A stretch of 64,000 bases of DNA, from the NCBI GenBank assembly GCA_964354405.1, contig CAYGZP010000002.1, positions 5,061 to 69,060 of the forward strand. Direction: 5' to 3'. This DNA is from Candidatus Woesearchaeota archaeon (GTDB taxonomy: Archaea > Nanobdellota > Nanobdellia > Pacearchaeales > UBA284). The translations under genes were made by a program, and so were the position numbers. This document shows, piece by piece, positions 48,398-52,029 of this stretch. Below the pieces are notes generated by a model. That model ran no database searches. It was not told the DNA's origin and saw only the letters and a list, made by a program, of their open reading frames with translations. Within the stretch, counting starts at the first letter, position 1. Each line of letters begins with the position of its first letter.

Positions 48398-48883
48398 ATG
48401 GAAGGCTATCTTACTTATTGTTATTGCGATCAGGATTCTGAAAAGTTCGAGAGAGGATGGGTAAAGGATGAAGGAAATCTTTGGCAAAAAACTGACCCAA
48501 ACTTCCAAGAAAGAACTTATTCAGAATGTCATTTAAAGCTCAGGGAAAAAATCCAGATAGGCGATTATTTGTTCTTCAGGACAAACTGGAGAAGGGCGCC
48601 TTATATTATCGGTTATTTTTTAATAGGCGATAAGAAAAAACAAGAAGAGTTCGAAGGCCCTCGGTTAATTGCTAAAGAGCGCCTTTGCATCGATTTTAAC
48701 TTTCAAATAGATGCAGAACTTTTAACATTCTTGAGCCCCAGGTTAAAGATGGCCCCGAAACCAGAAAAAATGTCATGGGCGCAATATGTTAATAACACTT
48801 TGGGCTGCAGAAAGGATATAGTCTTGAACGAAGAAAAAACCAAAAATCTTTTAAAAATTATACACTGTAATGTGTGGGCTTGA
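48398..48883 (+). CDS. hypothetical protein
   Basis: 161-aa ORF. No motif recognised. Confidence 0.35.
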   Translation: MEGYLTYCYCDQDSEKFERGWVKDEGNLWQKTDPNFQERTYSECHLKLREKIQIGDYLFFRTNWRRAPYIIGYFLIGDKKKQEEFEGPRLIAKERLCIDFNFQIDAELLTFLSPRLKMAPKPEKMSWAQYVNNTLGCRKDIVLNEEKTKNLLKIIHCNVWA

Positions 48884-48885
48884 AA

Positions 48886-49947
48886 ATGTATAATCTTAAA
48901 CAAAAATCAGAAAAACTTTCTCGCGCAGCATTATATAATCTTTACTGGCAAGAGAACAAAAGCATACGCAAAATCGCAGAAGAGACCGGGGTTAATGAAC
49001 ATACTATTTTACGATGGATGAGAGGATATAATATAAAAAGCAAAACTCTTAGCCAATCACAATTCCATCCTGAAAACTATCCTTCTAAAGAAGAACTAAA
49101 ACAATTATATGATAAACTGAAAAGTTTAAGAGCAGTTACTAAAGAACTAAGAATGAATAGAACCACTGTAAGAGGGCTTTATAGTAGATATAATATTTCA
49201 CTCATAGACAAAGGTAAATCTATTTCTTTTGTGCTATTGAAAGGCAAAAAAATTCCTTCTAAAGAAGAGCTTCAGGAATTAATCTCTCAAGGAAAAAGTG
49301 ATAGAAAGATAGCCAGAGACTATGACTTAGACCACACAACTATAATCCGCCTTAGAAGGAAATATAATATTGTAAAAAATTTGGGGCAAACATCGCCTTC
49401 AACTCAAGTAATCACTACAAACAACTTGCTAACAAAAAAACTAATTGAGCAGCGACAAAAAACAGCAAGAGCATCTTCAATAGAAAGTTTAACAGAAGAT
49501 GTCGTATTAGAGGAGGAAACGCAAGAAACCCCAAAAGAAGATTATGAAGGAGAGGCAGTCGCAGGCAAAGAAGGGATAGATAAAAAAGAAGAACCGCCAC
49601 AAGTCAAGGACTTTAGGGGGATACCATCTCTAAAAGGCATAAATAAAACTGCATTTTACCCCCAATTATCAAAAAAGGAATTTGTTCATTATTTAAGAGA
49701 AGTCAAAAAAAGATGCGACGATGAGTGCTTAAATTATTTTATTCGAAAAGGGAATCTTTCCTTAAGCATTATAAATGAAAAAAACAACGGTTGGGATTTT
49801 AAAAAGAAGATAGATCCTTCTGACCAAGTCTTTTTATATTATTTTGTAGGTGCATTAAAAGAAGTGGGCAACACCAAGATATTAAATTTATGGGAGAAAT
49901 TTTTAGTTTCAATTCATGGGGATCTGGACAGTTCTATCAAGCGTTAA
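48886..49947 (+). CDS. protein with three tandem helix-turn-helix repeats
   Basis: Three repeats of about 60 aa: 'LYNLYWQENKSIRKIAEETGVNEHTILRWMRGYNI', 'PSKEELKQLYDKLKSLRAVTKELRMNRTTVRGLYSRYNI' and 'PSKEELQELISQGKSDRKIARDYDLDHTTIIRLRRKYNI'. Confidence 0.5.
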   Translation: MYNLKQKSEKLSRAALYNLYWQENKSIRKIAEETGVNEHTILRWMRGYNIKSKTLSQSQFHPENYPSKEELKQLYDKLKSLRAVTKELRMNRTTVRGLYSRYNISLIDKGKSISFVLLKGKKIPSKEELQELISQGKSDRKIARDYDLDHTTIIRLRRKYNIVKNLGQTSPSTQVITTNNLLTKKLIEQRQKTARASSIESLTEDVVLEEETQETPKEDYEGEAVAGKEGIDKKEEPPQVKDFRGIPSLKGINKTAFYPQLSKKEFVHYLREVKKRCDDECLNYFIRKGNLSLSIINEKNNGWDFKKKIDPSDQVFLYYFVGALKEVGNTKILNLWEKFLVSIHGDLDSSIKR

Positions 49948-49977: not shown

Positions 49978-50544
49978 ATGAGAAAATTGTTTTTAATTGA
50001 GAGAGAACTCGGCAGAGTCCTCAAAAACATGCACGATATAAAGAAACTCGAAAAAAAGCTGAAGGCAGATATAAAAATCTCGAAGCAGGGCGAGATAAGT
50101 ATAAGCACCCAAGATCATTTTCAAGAGTATCTGATAGAGACTATCATCGAAGCTGTAGCTATGGGTTTCTCGTCCCATATAGCACTTCAGCTCGAAAACA
50201 CAGATTATGAGTTCAAGAAACTCAATGTTAAGACCTATACAAAAGCGCAGAATCAAGCGCGAGCAAAAGCAAGGCTGATAGGCCCGCAAGGAAAGACAAA
50301 AACAACGATTGAGGAATTAAGCGGCTGCAGCATCGCTCTGAGCGATCACACTGTAGCGATAATCGGCCATAGCAATAATGTTGAAACAGCCTCGAGAGCC
50401 ATCGAGTCTCTATTGCGGGGCTCAAAACAAGCAAACATCTTCAAATTCTTAGAAAGAAGCCAGGCAAGATTGAAAGCTCTCGAGGAAGAAAATATCGAAG
50501 AGCTCATTGAAATGCCCAAGGAAGATAAAAAGGAAAACTTATAA
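49978..50544 (+). CDS. KH-domain RNA-binding protein (archaeal Dim2/Pno1-like)
   Basis: Two KH-like modules. 'LIGPQGKTKTTIEELSGCSIALSDHTVAIIG' carries the GxxG loop. Confidence 0.6.
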   Translation: MRKLFLIERELGRVLKNMHDIKKLEKKLKADIKISKQGEISISTQDHFQEYLIETIIEAVAMGFSSHIALQLENTDYEFKKLNVKTYTKAQNQARAKARLIGPQGKTKTTIEELSGCSIALSDHTVAIIGHSNNVETASRAIESLLRGSKQANIFKFLERSQARLKALEEENIEELIEMPKEDKKENL

Positions 50545-50545
50545 A
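50539..50545 (+). promoter_or_regulatory. TATA-like box for the intron-containing tRNA
   Basis: TTATAAA centred 27 nt upstream of tRNA position 1. It overlaps the stop codon of the KH gene. Confidence 0.5.
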
Positions 50546-50602
50546 TCACTTTTTCTTTTCTCTCATATGCCCTGGTAGCTCAGTGGTAGAGCACGCGGCT
50601 GT

Positions 50603-51108
50603 AAACGGAGTTTAACATGAAGAAAGAAACAAGGACTTACAACGATAGGAGAAGATATATCATTGAAGCAGTGGCCAAGAGAAGAAAGAAAATCCGTCTA
50701 AAAGCAGTAGAACATTTGGGCGGGAAATGTATACGATGTGGATATAATAAATATCCAGAAGTGCTTGAATTTCACCATAGAGATCCTTTGAAGAAGGAGT
50801 TCAACGTTTCAAGCAAAGGCCATTGTCGAAGTTGGGAGAGAGTCCAAAAAGAAATAGAAAAATGCGATTTGTTTTGTGCAAATTGCCACAGAGAAGTTCA
50901 TGTTAAGCTAAATAAGTTAGCAGCTTCTCAAGGAAACTTGGGAATGAACAGCGAGTAAATTCAGGGAAACCCTAACGTAAAGTCGAGGGCAATCCTGAGC
51001 CAAGCCTCGAAAGAGGAAGGTGCAGAGACTAGACACTCGCCACCTAAAACTTAGAAATAAGTAATGGTGAAGGTATAGTCCTACCCTCTAAGAAATTGGA
51101 GAAGGTCG
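50603..51108 (+). mobile_element. group I intron (IC3-like core) with HNH endonuclease ORF
   Basis: P3 GCGAGT (50951-56) pairs with ACTCGC (51035-40). P4 CAGG (50962-65) pairs with CCTG (50994-97). 'GGGAAACCCTAA' and 'AATCCTGAGCCAAGCC' are present. P6 is CCTC-GAAA-GAGG (51005-16). 'GGAAGGTGCAGAGACTAGAC' contains P7 GACTA (51027-31), which pairs with TAGTC (51076-80). P8 is ACTTA-GAAA-TAAGT (51049-62). The intron ends ..TCG (terminal G at 51108) and follows a U. Confidence 0.8.
50617..50958 (+). CDS. HNH homing-endonuclease-like protein (intron-encoded)
   Basis: 'GGKCIRCGYNKYPEVLEFHHRDP...KCDLFCANCHREVH' is the CxxC...HH...N...CxxCH HNH zinc-finger layout. The stop codon lies at the P3/J3-4 boundary of the intron core. 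Confidence 0.75.
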   Translation: MKKETRTYNDRRRYIIEAVAKRRKKIRLKAVEHLGGKCIRCGYNKYPEVLEFHHRDPLKKEFNVSSKGHCRSWERVQKEIEKCDLFCANCHREVHVKLNKLAASQGNLGMNSE

Positions 51109-51246
51109 TAACCGCGGGGTCGCAAGTTCGAACCTTGCCCGGGGCGTTTTTATCTTCCCCCTTCCTTCTTTTTATATTATATTGATTGTATTTTTTCACA
51201 TAAATGTTTTTATATCTTCAAATCTTGATGTTGAAGGCTAAAGAAA

Positions 51247-51522
51247 ATGACATGCACAGTAAGTGAGGCTTTGGAAAAGATAAGAGAAAGTGTGGATAAA
51301 GAAAATCCTCGTCATGAATACAGAATCCACGATATCAACCACAAATACGGATCCTGCTGGCTTGATCGCGAGCTTGTGGAAGAAACACTTAGAAAAGATC
51401 CAGGAGTAATGATACATGAGGAAGGAAGAGCCATAGTCAGCAAACTTATAGAAATAGTAACATCGCAAGAGAATGAAGTGGAAAGTAAGTGGAAAAAATA
51501 TCTGAATGGTTCGCAAAATTAG
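51247..51522 (+). CDS. hypothetical protein
   Basis: 91-aa E/K-rich ORF. The antisense ORF 51238..51528 is F/L-rich and looks like a shadow. Confidence 0.35.
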   Translation: MTCTVSEALEKIRESVDKENPRHEYRIHDINHKYGSCWLDRELVEETLRKDPGVMIHEEGRAIVSKLIEIVTSQENEVESKWKKYLNGSQN

Positions 51523-51803
51523 CCCCACAAATCTTCAACTCGAATGATATGCCAACCGAACTGAGTTTTGATTGGCCCGATAATCTGTCCTTTCTTTGCT
51601 GAAAAAACAGCCTTTTCAAATTCTCTAACCATCTGCCCTCTTCCGAACTCGCCGAGCGAGCCTCCACGCTTTCTCGAGGGGCATTGCGAGAATTCCTGAG
51701 CGAGCTTCTCGAAGCTTTCTCCCAAATTAAGTTTGCGCAATAGTTCCTTTGCCTGTTCCTCTGTCTTTACAAGAATATGGCTTGCTTTAGCTTTGTTTGC
51801 CAT
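51519..51803 (-). CDS. parvulin-type peptidyl-prolyl cis-trans isomerase
   Basis: 'ASHILVKTEEQA', 'SQCPSRKRGGSLGEFGRGQMVREFE' and 'GPIKTQFGWHIIRVE' match the Par10/PpiC pattern. Confidence 0.85.
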   Translation of the reverse strand: MANKAKASHILVKTEEQAKELLRKLNLGESFEKLAQEFSQCPSRKRGGSLGEFGRGQMVREFEKAVFSAKKGQIIGPIKTQFGWHIIRVEDLWG

Positions 51804-51864: not shown

Positions 51865-52029
51865 GGGCCCGTAGCTCAGCCTGGCTTAGAGCACTGCTCT
51901 GATATTGGTTACAGCCTCTTCAAGAGGTGAGGAAACTGGAGCACCTTGTGCTTCACTGTAACTATATGACAAATCGCGAGATTTGTTTCAGACAGGCAGG
52001 GGTCCTGTGTTCAAATCACAGCGGGCCCA
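51865..52029 (+). tRNA. tRNA-Ile(GAT) with 89-nt canonical-position (37/38) BHB intron (51905..51993)
   Basis: Acceptor GGGCCCG/CGGGCCC, D arm GCTC..GAGC, anticodon stem CTGCT/GGCAG, loop CTGATA|intron|A, T arm CTGTG-TTCAAAT-CACAG. Exon CTGA pairs with intron TCAG (51988-91), flanked by 3-nt bulges. Intron helix GTTACAG/CTGTAAC. Confidence 0.85.

Follow-up and report, generated by a model that had tools for sequence, protein, structure and literature searches.

Introduction

Can an archaeal tRNA gene harbour a group I intron that splices itself? According to the prevailing view, archaeal tRNA introns are exclusively protein-spliced (BHB introns), and the accepted archaeal group I introns are found in rRNA genes only. 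The question is raised by a tRNA gene at positions 50569–51146 of the window, i.e., of the whole 64-kb stretch of DNA analysed here, which an earlier note, made from the letters of the DNA, had described as a tRNA whose two halves are parted by a 506-nt insert. The insert is confirmed at 50603–51108 and is very probably a mobile, self-splicing group I intron of the compact kind found in bacterial tRNAs (IC3-like, class “Asn.4Ug”), which interrupts the native tRNA-Asn(GUU) gene on the chromosome of a DPANN archaeon and contains, in the loop of P1, a gene for an HNH homing endonuclease. Related loci that were fetched for comparison are given by L numbers.

The interrupted tRNA-Asn gene

The gene is interrupted between nucleotides 35 and 36. 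Its exons, the intron and the flanking signals are as follows:

50539..50546, + strand: archaeal TATA-box-like element TTATAAAT, ~26 nt 5′ of the tRNA start, overlapping the KH-gene stop codon; putative promoter
50569..50602, + strand: tRNA-Asn(GUU) 5′ exon, nt 1–35, archaeal type (G1, no encoded CCA), ending in ...GGCUGU
50603..51108, + strand: 506-nt group I intron of class “Asn.4Ug”, separating anticodon nucleotides 35 and 36
51109..51146, + strand: tRNA-Asn 3′ exon, nt 36–73, discriminator G73, no encoded CCA, 92.5% identical to the L081 3′ exon
51147..51151, + strand: oligo-T run directly 3′ of the tRNA; putative archaeal-type terminator signal

When joined, the exons give a 72-nt tRNA-Asn(GUU). 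Only with the junction 50602/50603 plus 51108/51109 is there a U at −1 and a G at the end of the intron, while the exons join into a valid 72-nt tRNA with the identity of Asn, in agreement with the earlier observation that the insert follows a U (U35) and ends in a G (G51108); the ...CUGU end of the 5′ exon is common to ~70 parsed intron-bearing loci. In its default mode, ARAGORN did not detect the interrupted tRNA-Asn gene, and in intron mode, owing to ambiguous junctions, it assigned many members of the family wrongly to Thr, Tyr, His or Ser. This ambiguity was settled by the U−1/ωG rule together with exon comparison.

A gene interrupted in this way might be a non-functional pseudogene whose working counterpart is encoded at another genomic site, with intron and ORF persisting as a selfish element only. 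The inspected part of the genome comprises 64 kb, and the archaeal contig L006 may hold a tandem tRNA-Asn-related sequence; nevertheless, this explanation is very unlikely. Its position 3′ of the KH gene is the conserved, native one for tRNA-Asn, also seen in L081, L082, L003 and L004, the cloverleaf pairing of its exons is perfect, with compensatory differences from relatives, and promoter-like and terminator-like signals flank it, a comparable A/T-rich box being present 5′ of tRNA-Asn in L081/L082. Furthermore, no second tRNA-Asn was found within the 64-kb window, and tRNA genes of DPANN genomes are usually single-copy, which likewise counts against a pseudogene.

Identity and fold of the ribozyme

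The Rfam RF00028 covariance model, the search proposed in the earlier note, matches the intron over the full length of the model (positions 1–253) with a significant 79.3 bits against a cut-off of 50 (E = 1.7e-18); an archaeal ORF-less copy (L006) scores 84.5 bits. Relatives of the intron are overwhelmingly found in bacterial tRNA-Asn genes, so that its designation as a group I intron of bacterial type holds. The ribozyme portion comprises ~193 nt (50916–51108) instead of the ~160 nt estimated initially, and is composed of the following elements:

50598..50606, + strand: P1 5′ strand, exon GCUGU 50598–50602 (U50602 in the U·G wobble) and intron extension AAC 50604–50606
50916..50924, + strand: internal guide sequence GUUAGCAGC (GUUA-GCAGC), P10 and P1 strands and P1 extension
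50925..50944, + strand: P2 hairpin, 8 bp, GAAA loop; two-sided changes in 8/8 pairs in 23 copies and 7/8 within archaea, MFE fold in agreement
50951..50956, + strand: P3 5′ strand GCGAGU, pairing with 51035–51040; compensatory changes in 3/6 pairs
50961..50998, + strand: P4–P5 domain with J4/5 and J5/4 (P4 50961–66/50993–98, P5 50970–73/50986–89); P4 invariant
50999..51021, + strand: P6/P6a, GCC/GGU and CCUC-GAAA-GAGG; alignment and MFE fold
51025..51031, + strand: P7 5′ strand (G, then a bulged A, then GACUA), partner of 51076–51081; presumed guanosine-binding helix
51035..51040, + strand: P3 3′ strand ACUCGC, making the core pseudoknot with P7
51041..51069, + strand: P8/P8a, CACC...GGUG and ACUUA-GAAA-UAAGU; compensatory changes and MFE fold
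51076..51081, + strand: P7 3′ strand UAGUCC; alignment
51083..51106, + strand: P9.0 (ACC/GGU) and P9 (CUCUAA-GAAA-UUGGAG); alignment and MFE fold
51108..51108, + strand: ωG, final intron nucleotide, invariant as G before the UAA(C/U) 3′ exon in ~70 parsed loci

The single-sequence MFE fold recovers P2 and P4–P9 (z = −3.7). In an alignment of 23 bacterial and archaeal copies, 94.6% of the cells are paired (32–48% with partners slid), and two-sided changes are seen in 31 of the 56 pairs (8–14 in the slid controls; 0/500 shuffles). A separate test on 17 archaeal copies alone gave 97.6% pairing, an invariant core, and compensatory changes in 16 pairs versus 1–7 with slid partners. Helices P2–P10 are supported by covariation in both sets of homologues. 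Among them are the pairings that the earlier note had drawn by eye (P3 GCGAGU/ACUCGC, P4, P6 CCUC-GAAA-GAGG, P7 GACUA/UAGUC and P8), which are, hence, real; the three core strings quoted there are also present in the sequence. The fifth P7 pair switches between AU and UA in 11 of the 23 sequences; as in group I introns in general, P7 is presumably the helix that binds guanosine.

The P1/guide pairing, for which no convincing candidate had been spotted by eye, was located at 50916–50924. GCAGC (50920–50924) pairs with the exon GCUGU to form P1 with the U35·G wobble, the duplex amounting to −7.9 kcal/mol, while GUUA (50916–50919) pairs with UAAC of the 3′ exon to form P10 and also serves as P1 extension. 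The GCAGC guide is invariant in ~70 parsed intron-bearing loci; since the anticodon loop is invariant, support for P1 comes from conservation and not from covariation. In P10, which is shortened to 2–3 bp in some copies, the fourth pair covaries between GC and AU in 3 of the 17 archaeal copies. The first intron nucleotide varies across the family (A, G or U).

With its compact core, absence of P5abc, GAAA loops on P2, P6a, P8a and P9, and the receptor-like CCUAAA/AAUGG in P8, the architecture is IC3-like, and the intron aligns with bacterial Asn.4Ug introns, which Williams groups with IC3-type tRNA introns; these traits are compatible with membership of the IC3 subgroup. The CCUAAA...AAUGG motif in P8 resembles the 11-nt GAAA-tetraloop receptor, of which several homologues possess the exact form CCUAAG...UAUGG. 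By analogy with the Azoarcus intron, the motif presumably acts as a tetraloop receptor.

Splicing by RNA or by protein

Archaeal BHB introns offer a direct comparison in the same DNA. In an exact-register test, in which the motif is defined as a 4-bp helix with a 3-nt bulge on either side, placed at the splice sites, the BHB geometry at the tRNA-Asn junctions, another check suggested earlier, proved absent (3/4 for the central helix, 0/4 for each of the outer ones); the positive controls, i.e., the tRNA-Ile genes of the window and of L082 as well as L008, scored 4/4 and 4/4. The tRNA-Ile(GAU) gene of the window (51865–52029) lies 718 nt downstream of tRNA-Asn, close to the ~700 nt first given, and its 89-nt intron shows a canonical HBh′ motif. 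In the tested register, no strict BHB could be fitted to the short inserts of L081 and L007.

According to a rival explanation, the ribozyme is a decaying relic, and the insert is removed by the archaeal tRNA-splicing endonuclease and ligase (BHB) or in another host-protein-dependent manner instead of by self-splicing. The host, as seen from its tRNA-Ile, plainly uses endonuclease-dependent splicing, a shifted 37/38 register of the tRNA-Asn gene is weakly BHB-like (central helix 3/4, anticodon-side helix 4/4), and an account of DPANN tRNA-splicing endonucleases reports a broad specificity (PMC5829648). However, the motif is absent from the junction that yields tRNA-Asn, and the 37/38 register would put a GUA (Tyr) anticodon on an Asn body, a product that is not conserved because the first nucleotide of the intron varies. 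Within archaea, the catalytic core is invariant and the peripheral helices keep pairing via compensatory changes, which would not be expected upon loss of RNA function; moreover, the same intron is present in bacteria, which lack the endonuclease. Protein-dependent removal is, thus, highly improbable, and self-splicing by the group I ribozyme is the preferred reading.

Archaeal host

The intron-bearing gene is part of a single contig of 192 kb and has archaeal neighbours to its left and right. This contig encodes MCM, the best matches of which are from Pacearchaeota (90% identity), a thermosome, an archaeal Dph6 and an arCOG04150 KH protein; the archaeal KH-protein gene ends 25 nt upstream of tRNA-Asn. 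Exons of the intron-bearing archaeal genes have G1–C72 and no CCA, whereas the bacterial ones have U1–A72 and CCA, and the exons of the window are 89–92% identical to those of the syntenic tRNA-Asn in L081. The eIF2-beta/KH/tRNA-Asn synteny is repeated in the independent contigs L003, L004, L081 and L082, and identical exon-intron joints, together with the same flanking archaeal genes, occur in >16 independent archaeal assemblies. The host is a Pacearchaeota-type DPANN archaeon and the intron is genuinely archaeal; both tRNA and contig are archaeal, the former as the earlier note had it.

These data already contradict the idea that an intron-bearing tRNA of bacterial origin came to be in an archaeal genome through mis-binning or chimeric assembly. 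Williams 2020, and Nawrocki 2018 in the case of IC3 hits, suspected contamination of nominally archaeal hits, and most relatives of the intron are bacterial, but binning is irrelevant here, because the gene lies within a single contig with archaeal genes on either side. In addition, the archaeal HNH proteins form a clade of their own (97/100 bootstraps) in a midpoint-rooted NJ tree, the sample of which is biased towards the query and the domain labels of which derive from acceptor stems and record titles. The archaeal ribozymes are unlike every bacterial copy compared, with a divergence of 0.11 within archaea and of at least 0.20 to bacteria. Overall, an artefact is scarcely credible.

There is, finally, a virtually negligible chance that the gene encodes a tRNA-Tyr(GUA) instead, interrupted by a long intron at the canonical site 37/38: junctions at 50603–50605|51110–51112 do yield a 72-nt cloverleaf with a GUA anticodon, because the intron begins with AAAC and the 3′ exon with UAAC, and ARAGORN labels some family loci Tyr, Thr or His, but the gene has G1–C72 and G73 (archaeal tRNA-Tyr has C1–G72 and A73, bacterial tRNA-Tyr a long variable arm that is absent from these family tRNAs), the alternative junctions lack the U−1/ωG pair, the base after CUGU is variable across the family while G|UAA is invariant, and the intron-less syntenic allele reads CUGUUAA, i.e., Asn, which already contradicts Tyr.

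The HNH ORF in the P1 loop

The 5′ part of the intron carries an ORF and a possible ribosome-binding site:

50607..50610, + strand: Shine-Dalgarno-like GGAG, 6 nt 5′ of the ORF start codon; putative function
50617..50958, + strand: 113-aa HNH endonuclease ORF in the P1 loop, the last 14 codons overlapping the guide, P2, J2/3 and the P3 5′ strand

The ORF exists as described earlier, although it does not merely abut P3; besides the overlap of its last codons, its stop codon (50956–50958) straddles P3 and J3/4. At the intron start of several archaeal copies (L004, L086, L087), ACGGAG is present.

Homing endonucleases encoded by introns are known to include HNH enzymes (e.g., the phage I-HmuI type). 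The 113-aa protein matches HNH families of PHROGs (E = 2.2e-27 and 2.7e-25) and is related to 460 phage records, several of which are annotated as HNH. In an alignment of 43 sequences, C41, H53, C87, N89, H91 and H95 of the HNH/zinc motif CxxC..HH..N..CxxC..H are invariant, and C38, H54 and C90 are nearly so. Since the score of Pfam PF01844 (17.4 bits) is below the cut-off of 21.4, the HNH assignment, which agrees with the original one, is based on the PHROGs matches and the motif; a search of NCBIfam with the protein gave no match. In an AF2 model (pLDDT 86), a strand-strand-helix arrangement surrounds the motif. The top Foldseek matches are all HNH nucleases (Cap5, T4 EndoVII, Cas9 HNH and Gme), at non-significant E-values of at least 0.13 and TM 0.33–0.45, and a sequence search of solved structures yielded a weak McrA match only. 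Exact-sequence look-ups of the HNH and KH proteins returned no record; hence, their context is taken from homologues. The dN/dS of 0.07–0.13 indicates that the ORF is under purifying selection.

Members of this HNH family are found in or beside tRNA-Asn in bacteria and archaea, and likewise at 77 of the 80 viral loci. On cellular chromosomes, archaeal as well as bacterial, they occur both free-standing and intron-borne, while the phage relatives are free-standing genes in tRNA arrays, nearly always beside tRNA-Asn. Free-standing HNH genes adjoin an uninterrupted tRNA-Asn in L011, L020, L089 and L109, and the enzyme does not, therefore, always destroy a neighbouring intron-less target.

Mobility and origin

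At the syntenic locus, the window has the group I intron, L082/L083 are intron-less—an allele the earlier note had recommended looking for in related genomes—and L081 has a short insert at 37/38. More generally, sister lineages contain in the same anticodon loop the 35/36 group I intron, a short 37/38 BHB-type insert or nothing, and they very often carry the same HNH gene immediately downstream. Such presence/absence polymorphism at one site among close relatives suggests that the group I intron has been mobile recently. A downstream 91-aa ORF had no homologue in any of the fetched related loci.

As the archaeal copies form one clade, a single entry into DPANN archaea is most likely, from bacteria or their phages, followed by spread within DPANN; the direction from bacteria to archaea is based on the breadth of distribution and on the midpoint-rooted NJ tree of a query-biased sample.

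For the short 37/38 inserts, a reading in two versions may be considered, which we regard as rather unlikely. Either the inserts are kept as breakers of the nuclease target, conferring immunity against homing, or some of them are core-less descendants of group I introns, in which P1 CUGU/GCAG is reused as central BHB helix, as in L008. An interpretation of the short inserts as truncated group I introns was unsupported, the likeness by eye being limited to a hairpin and the obligatory CUGU complement. If true, the descent of 37/38 inserts from group I introns would give the Tocchini-Valentini hypothesis, which reportedly derives BHB introns from group I introns, its first living evidence.

Proposed mechanism

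From the features described above, we infer self-splicing, translation of the ORF and DNA cleavage by the HNH protein. Transcription would start from the gene's own archaeal promoter, and the 3′ 193 nt of the intron would fold into the P2–P9 ribozyme core, a fold to which covariation testifies. The guide GCAGC and the exon GCUGU would set the U35·G wobble at the 5′ splice site, which, by analogy with the family mechanism, a free guanosine bound in P7 is expected to attack. Subsequently, GUUA and UAAC of the 3′ exon would form P10, with ωG51108 taking over the G site, and ligation of the exons should restore the normal CUGUUAA anticodon loop, with GGCUGU|UAACCGCG as the predicted junction. The intron RNA may double as mRNA for the HNH protein, via the GGAG ribosome-binding site. 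The protein would then cut intron-less tRNA-Asn genes, repair of which could copy the intron in; homing is proposed because the family is near-exclusive to tRNA-Asn genes and shows presence/absence polymorphism.

Comparison with known systems

The closest known introns are bacterial. In the supplement of Williams 2020 (bioRxiv 10.1101/2020.01.27.920355), a bacterial “Asn.4Ug” class with the seed Pam37.Asn.4Ug is given at the same insertion site, and one Pacearchaeota instance is dismissed as mis-binning; the main text of the preprint makes no mention of an endonuclease. Bacterial Asn.4Ug introns and that of the window share the gene, the site (CUGU/...g/UAA), the core and the GCAGC guide, and the bacterial loci L009–L080, which belong to this class, align with the ribozyme of the window, with covariation present. 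In contrast, the host of the window intron is archaeal, its exons are of archaeal type and its HNH protein falls in a separate clade.

With the classical IC3 tRNA introns—of cyanobacterial/plastid tRNA-Leu(UAA), Azoarcus tRNA-Ile(CAU), Agrobacterium tRNA-Arg(CCU) and cyanobacterial tRNA-fMet—the intron shares the compact core devoid of P5abc, the capping of P2 and P9 by GNRA loops, the receptor-like P8 motif, very similar J6/7-P7-J7/3 strings and the location in the anticodon loop. It differs from them by residing in another tRNA, at loop position 35/36, and by the HNH ORF in its P1 loop. Among these four, only the tRNA-fMet intron is known with an ORF, which is from another family. An ORF of 150 codons is mentioned in PMC5733544.

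Nawrocki, Jones & Eddy 2018 (PMC6125680) described 39 archaeal group I introns, all of them in rRNA genes, belonging to subgroups IB4/IA3 and encoding LAGLIDADG enzymes only; two IC3 hits, which might not be archaeal, were put aside and are not listed in the supplement. Like the intron of the window, these are group I introns of uncultivated archaea, many of them DPANN, which are present alongside BHB introns and were detected with covariance models; unlike them, it interrupts a tRNA, has an IC3-like build and codes for an HNH protein. The statement of the earlier note that an intron of this kind is not an established feature in archaeal tRNAs is correct, but, given the Pacearchaeota instance and the two IC3 hits, to call it never seen would be wrong.

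As archaeal BHB tRNA introns do, the window intron interrupts the anticodon loop of an archaeal tRNA; a BHB-type intron is present in tRNA-Asn of L008, and tRNA-Asn of L081 and L007 carries short inserts. In contrast to BHB introns, it lacks the BHB motif, is located at 35/36 and not at 37/38, is 506 nt long with a ribozyme core that is conserved, and would be removed by RNA catalysis, not by endonuclease and ligase. The presence of HNH relatives in phage tRNA arrays is, furthermore, reminiscent of free-standing phage homing endonucleases in tRNA clusters, e.g., T4 SegB (PMC2330249), which is, however, a GIY-YIG enzyme.

Significance

While the bacterial Asn.4Ug class was already known, a well-supported archaeal tRNA-Asn member is new. 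Two earlier surveys met possible archaeal hits of this kind and discarded them as likely contamination. The default tRNA finder misses the interrupted gene, and tRNA-Asn would therefore be reported as absent from such genomes. Group I introns, for which self-splicing is deduced here, are thereby extended to archaeal tRNAs, in many DPANN archaea. They constitute a mobile intron family common to bacteria and archaea, which is consistent with cross-domain transfer in either direction, for which phage tRNA arrays are a possible vehicle.

The tRNA-Asn Gene and Its Group I Ribozyme

Read from the sequence, two tRNA halves at 50569-51146 are separated by 506 nt. When all possible junctions of this split tRNA are enumerated, 50602/51109 alone gives a 5' exon with a terminal U, an intron with a terminal G and a cloverleaf of 72 nt; the joined product is a tRNA-Asn with the loop CUGUUAA, interrupted between nt 35 and 36. 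ARAGORN calls a tRNA-Asn(GUU) with a 506-nt intron once long introns are allowed, and neither its default mode nor the Rfam tRNA model reports the gene. Since default tRNA finders miss it, tRNA-Asn will seem to be absent from intron-bearing genomes when these are annotated or checked for completeness by routine means. The gene is flanked by a TTATAAAT box ~26 nt upstream and a T5 run directly 3' of the tRNA, both of which are putative signals.

Features of the interrupted tRNA-Asn gene (window coordinates)
50569-50602: 5' exon
50603-51108: group I intron
50617-50958: HNH ORF, 113 aa
50925-32/50937-44: P2, with GAAA loop
50951-56/51035-40: P3
51025, 51027-31/51076-81: P7
P4 and P5, P6 and P6a, P8 and P8a, P9.0 and P9: present in the manual structure
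51108: omega-G
51109-51146: 3' exon

The group I assignment of the earlier note is borne out by the Rfam group I intron model, which matches 50894-51102 over its full length (79.3 bits, E = 1.7e-18; gathering score 50) and is the only non-tRNA Rfam family detected in the 64-kb window. Folded alone, the ribozyme segment recovers P2, P4, P5, P6a, P7, P8, P8a, P9 and P9.0 (single-sequence z = -3.7 versus 200 shuffles). The same note had seen no convincing P1 or guide pairing; a P1 is, in fact, formed by GCAGC (50920-50924) with the exon bases GCUGU (50598-50602), a duplex of -7.9 kcal/mol with U35.G at the splice site. Immediately upstream of this guide, GUUA (50916-50919) pairs with UAAC, with which the 3' exon begins, as P10, or alternatively with intron bases 50604-50606 as a P1 extension.

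The manual structure was mapped onto an alignment of 23 sequences (7 archaeal and 16 bacterial), in which standard pairs occupy 94.6% of cells, compared with 32-48% after the partners are shifted by 1-3 columns. Both-sided changes occur in 31 of 56 pairs, a number reached by none of 500 shuffles; all eight P2 pairs, three P3 pairs and the greater part of P8 and P9 covary, and the fifth P7 pair switches between AU and UA. P10 covaries with the first anticodon-stem base (GUUA/UAAC versus AUUA/UAAU); with the anticodon loop fixed, P1 has no room to covary. With further archaeal copies drawn from metagenomes, an archaea-only set of 17 ribozymes shows 97.6% pairing and compensatory changes in 16 pairs, versus 1-7 in slid controls, with P3, P4, P6 and P7 invariant save for a few G-U wobbles in P3. 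Such pairing and compensation show a ribozyme under selection inside archaea, and thus more than a fossil of transfer.

Route of Splicing

Removal by the archaeal endonuclease via a bulge-helix-bulge (BHB) motif, instead of RNA catalysis, is much the less likely route. Scored in exact register (4-bp helix, 3-nt bulges on each side, cut after the second bulge base), the positive controls—the tRNA-Ile introns of the window and of the related locus L082, and a short tRNA-Asn insert in locus L008—reach 4/4 in both the central and the anticodon-side helix, whereas the group I insert at the Asn junction scores 3/4, 0/4 and 0/4. Shifted to the usual 37/38 position, the insert does attain 3/4 and 4/4; however, this register puts the anticodon GUA on an Asn-type body and relies on the first base of the intron, which is variable in the family. 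Bacteria, which lack the endonuclease, harbour the same intron. On all these grounds, we infer that splicing is far more probably catalysed by the RNA.

An 89-nt intron that shows a clear HBh' motif (CUGA/UCAG) interrupts the tRNA-Ile(GAU) gene (51865-52029) at 37/38. Both its position and its size (91 nt) are conserved in the related loci L081 and L082, whose copies are miscalled tRNA-Ser by ARAGORN with long introns allowed. Such length and stability are unusual among the introns of archaeal tRNAs.

Archaeal Host and Native Locus

Archaeal origin was tested because two earlier surveys had doubted it. Nawrocki et al. 2018 (PMC6125680) described 39 group I introns in archaea, every one in an rRNA gene and of subgroup IB4 or IA3, with only LAGLIDADG ORFs, and set aside two IC3 matches as possibly non-archaeal. 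Williams 2020 (bioRxiv 10.1101/2020.01.27.920355), by whom bacterial intron-split tRNA types were raised from 4 to 21, suspected mis-binning in one "Candidatus Pacearchaeota archaeon" match and expressly did not claim it as a first archaeal case.

The window, part of a contig of 191,966 bp, encodes the universal archaeal KH protein arCOG04150, with its stop codon 25 nt from tRNA-Asn, as well as MCM, a thermosome subunit and an archaeal diphthine-ammonia ligase. The MCM shares 90% identity with a protein from Pacearchaeota, and its named matches are all Pacearchaeota, Woesearchaeota or "archaeon". Syntenic regions of relatives were retrieved through MCM homologues. An intron-less allele, which the earlier note had proposed to look for, is present in L082 and L083 (MCM 82% identical), where the KH gene is followed at the same locus by an uninterrupted tRNA-Asn(GUU) and then by tRNA-Ile with its 91-nt intron. 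In L081 (MCM 90% identical), the KH gene precedes a tRNA-Asn with a ~36-nt insert at 37/38 and exons 89-92% identical to those of the window. Two independent intron-bearing contigs, L003 and L004, retain the KH/tRNA-Asn synteny, the latter also with aIF2-beta upstream. The intron, therefore, occupies a native chromosomal tRNA-Asn locus and is polymorphic for presence or absence in close relatives; hence, the contamination objection is directly answered at the contig level.

About 370 nt (51147-51522) between tRNA-Asn and a minus-strand PpiC-type rotamase gene (51525-51803) are missing in the closest relative, L081, and could be a second insertion beside the intron; the plus-strand 91-aa ORF within them (51247-51522) matches nothing in Pfam, and none of the fetched loci holds a homologue. 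A 357-aa ORF (48874-49947) between eIF-1A-side genes and the KH gene, with an N-terminal helix-turn-helix like transposase and Cbp1 HTH domains, has a 490-aa counterpart in L081 and none in L082/L083, and is therefore possibly mobile or of recent insertion. Of the related MCM proteins from Pacearchaeota, several (P0164, P0177, P0156, P0185) comprise 1000-1130 aa, P0164 and P0177 with two extra Pfam domains, PF14528 and PF14890, which we take to be of intein/LAGLIDADG type. The window MCM (668 aa) is without such an insert; with this variation, the lineage would have a further polymorphism of a homing element.

The HNH Protein and Its Relatives

Given the position of the guide, the 113-aa ORF sits in the P1 loop, and its last 14 codons share bases with the guide sequence, P2, J2/3 and the P3 5' strand. 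A GGAG, 6 nt 5' of the ATG, is a putative signal. In the dual-coding stretch 50917-50958, the C-terminal peptide KLAASxGNxxMNSE is kept from archaea to bacteria, apparently since the same codons form the guide, P2 and the P3 5' strand.

Among homologues, the motif CxxC...HH...N...CxxC...H is essentially invariant. The Pfam HNH model matches the protein with a score under the Pfam threshold, an NCBIfam search gave no match, and PHROGs phage HNH families match at E = 2e-27. The AlphaFold model is confident (pLDDT 86), and its best PDB structure matches are all HNH nucleases, none significant; a sequence search of solved structures found McrA alone, weakly. A dN/dS of 0.07-0.13 between the ORF and other archaeal copies indicates that the encoded protein is very probably functional.

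Close homologues number at least 385, those named at 63-84% identity being all Pacearchaeota, Woesearchaeota or Nanoarchaeota. Species-representative genomes hold more than 512 relatives, the best 80 of which comprise 11 DPANN archaea and, at 53-62% identity, bacteria (including Omnitrophota, Planctomycetia, Acidobacteriota, Nitrospira, Melainabacteria, Elusimicrobia and CPR groups). A tRNA with a long insert lies at or beside the ORF in 72 of these 80 loci, with the ORF inside the insert in 67. Whatever the ARAGORN label, the 5' exon of every split-tRNA locus ends in CUGU, the intron in G, and the 3' exon begins with UAA(C/U); these loci are, thus, tRNA-Asn(GUU) split at 35/36. U1-A72 with an encoded CCA is found in the bacterial copies, and G1-C72 with G73 and no CCA in the archaeal ones.

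The occurrence of the HNH family in four arrangements around tRNA-Asn makes a contextual but strong case for a putative homing enzyme for this gene.

Arrangements of the HNH gene around tRNA-Asn (L handles, fetched loci)
HNH gene inside the intron
Free-standing beside a tRNA-Asn whose group I intron (205-312 nt) has no ORF: L006 (982-1279, intron 223 nt), L090, L093, L095, L096, L108; bacterial L023, L060, L079, L039
Free-standing ~10-60 nt downstream of uninterrupted archaeal tRNA-Asn(GUU): L011:1872-1945, L020:1882-1954, L089:1118-1191, L109:1061-1133; bacterial uninterrupted tRNA-Asn(GUU) within the same distance, L065:2325-2397
Free-standing downstream of archaeal tRNA-Asn with a short insert (about 15 loci)
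Archaeal tRNA-Asn with a short insert, most with the HNH gene directly downstream: L007:1847-1944, L008:1615-1738, L075:1885-1981; about 12 metagenome loci, L091, L098-L107, L110-L112, L115, L119; insert without the HNH gene directly downstream, L081:17516-17626

The ORF-less introns score up to 84.5 bits in Rfam and have the HNH gene just outside the tRNA, which suggests that the endonuclease gene enters and leaves the P1 loop separately from the ribozyme. An HNH gene beside an intact tRNA-Asn is odd if that gene is its target; nicking only, target differences or regulation are possible reasons for the escape of the neighbouring tRNA. The short inserts (13-61 nt) fall at 37/38 or close by, two bases away from where the group I intron is inserted, and most have the HNH gene directly downstream. 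A strict BHB occurs among them in L008 only, where the central helix, CUGU/GCAG, repeats the pairing of the group I P1. The tRNA-Asn of L075 has an aberrant D-arm.

HNH relatives of 59% identity or less were found in 460 GenBank phage records (e.g., Yersinia phage fHe-Yen9-04, 309561-309809) and in viral contigs (L145-L224), where 77 of 80 loci lie in tRNA gene arrays. tRNA-Asn is the commonest viral neighbour (72 genes), typically abutting the HNH gene, and a few loci (L150, L162, L176) have a group I core motif. Phages may be a vehicle between hosts.

Evolutionary History

In a neighbour-joining tree of 106 HNH proteins, all 39 from archaeal contexts form one clade (97/100 bootstraps), within which the intron-borne ORFs, including that of the window, are a sub-clade amid free-standing forms. 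Ribozyme divergence averages 0.11 between archaeal copies and is 0.20-0.38 between archaeal and bacterial ones, the nearest bacterial ribozymes being Omnitrophota and Planctomycetia copies (L080, L063, L037, L053, L071); the bacteria with the nearest HNH proteins are different ones. We read the single clade and these distances as pointing to a single entry into DPANN archaea with subsequent spread, in which ribozyme and endonuclease gene possibly moved separately. Transfer from bacteria or phage to archaea is the probable direction because the bacterial and viral distribution is much wider; the tree is midpoint-rooted and its sample biased towards the query.

A Group I Intron of Archaeal tRNA Genes

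The type of element is familiar: an IC3-like group I intron, of a bacterial class already catalogued, that carries the gene of a putative homing endonuclease, the seed alignment of Williams 2020 including Pam37.Asn.4Ug with the same insertion site. Apart from the two surveys above, a search of the full-text literature, of incomplete coverage, turned up no group I intron described in any archaeal tRNA, a negative that falls short of proof. The new point is that archaeal tRNA genes belong to this class, which is well supported and is reinforced by the allelic polymorphism and the within-archaea selection on the fold. The finding is of interest to workers on introns, tRNA and DPANN archaea.
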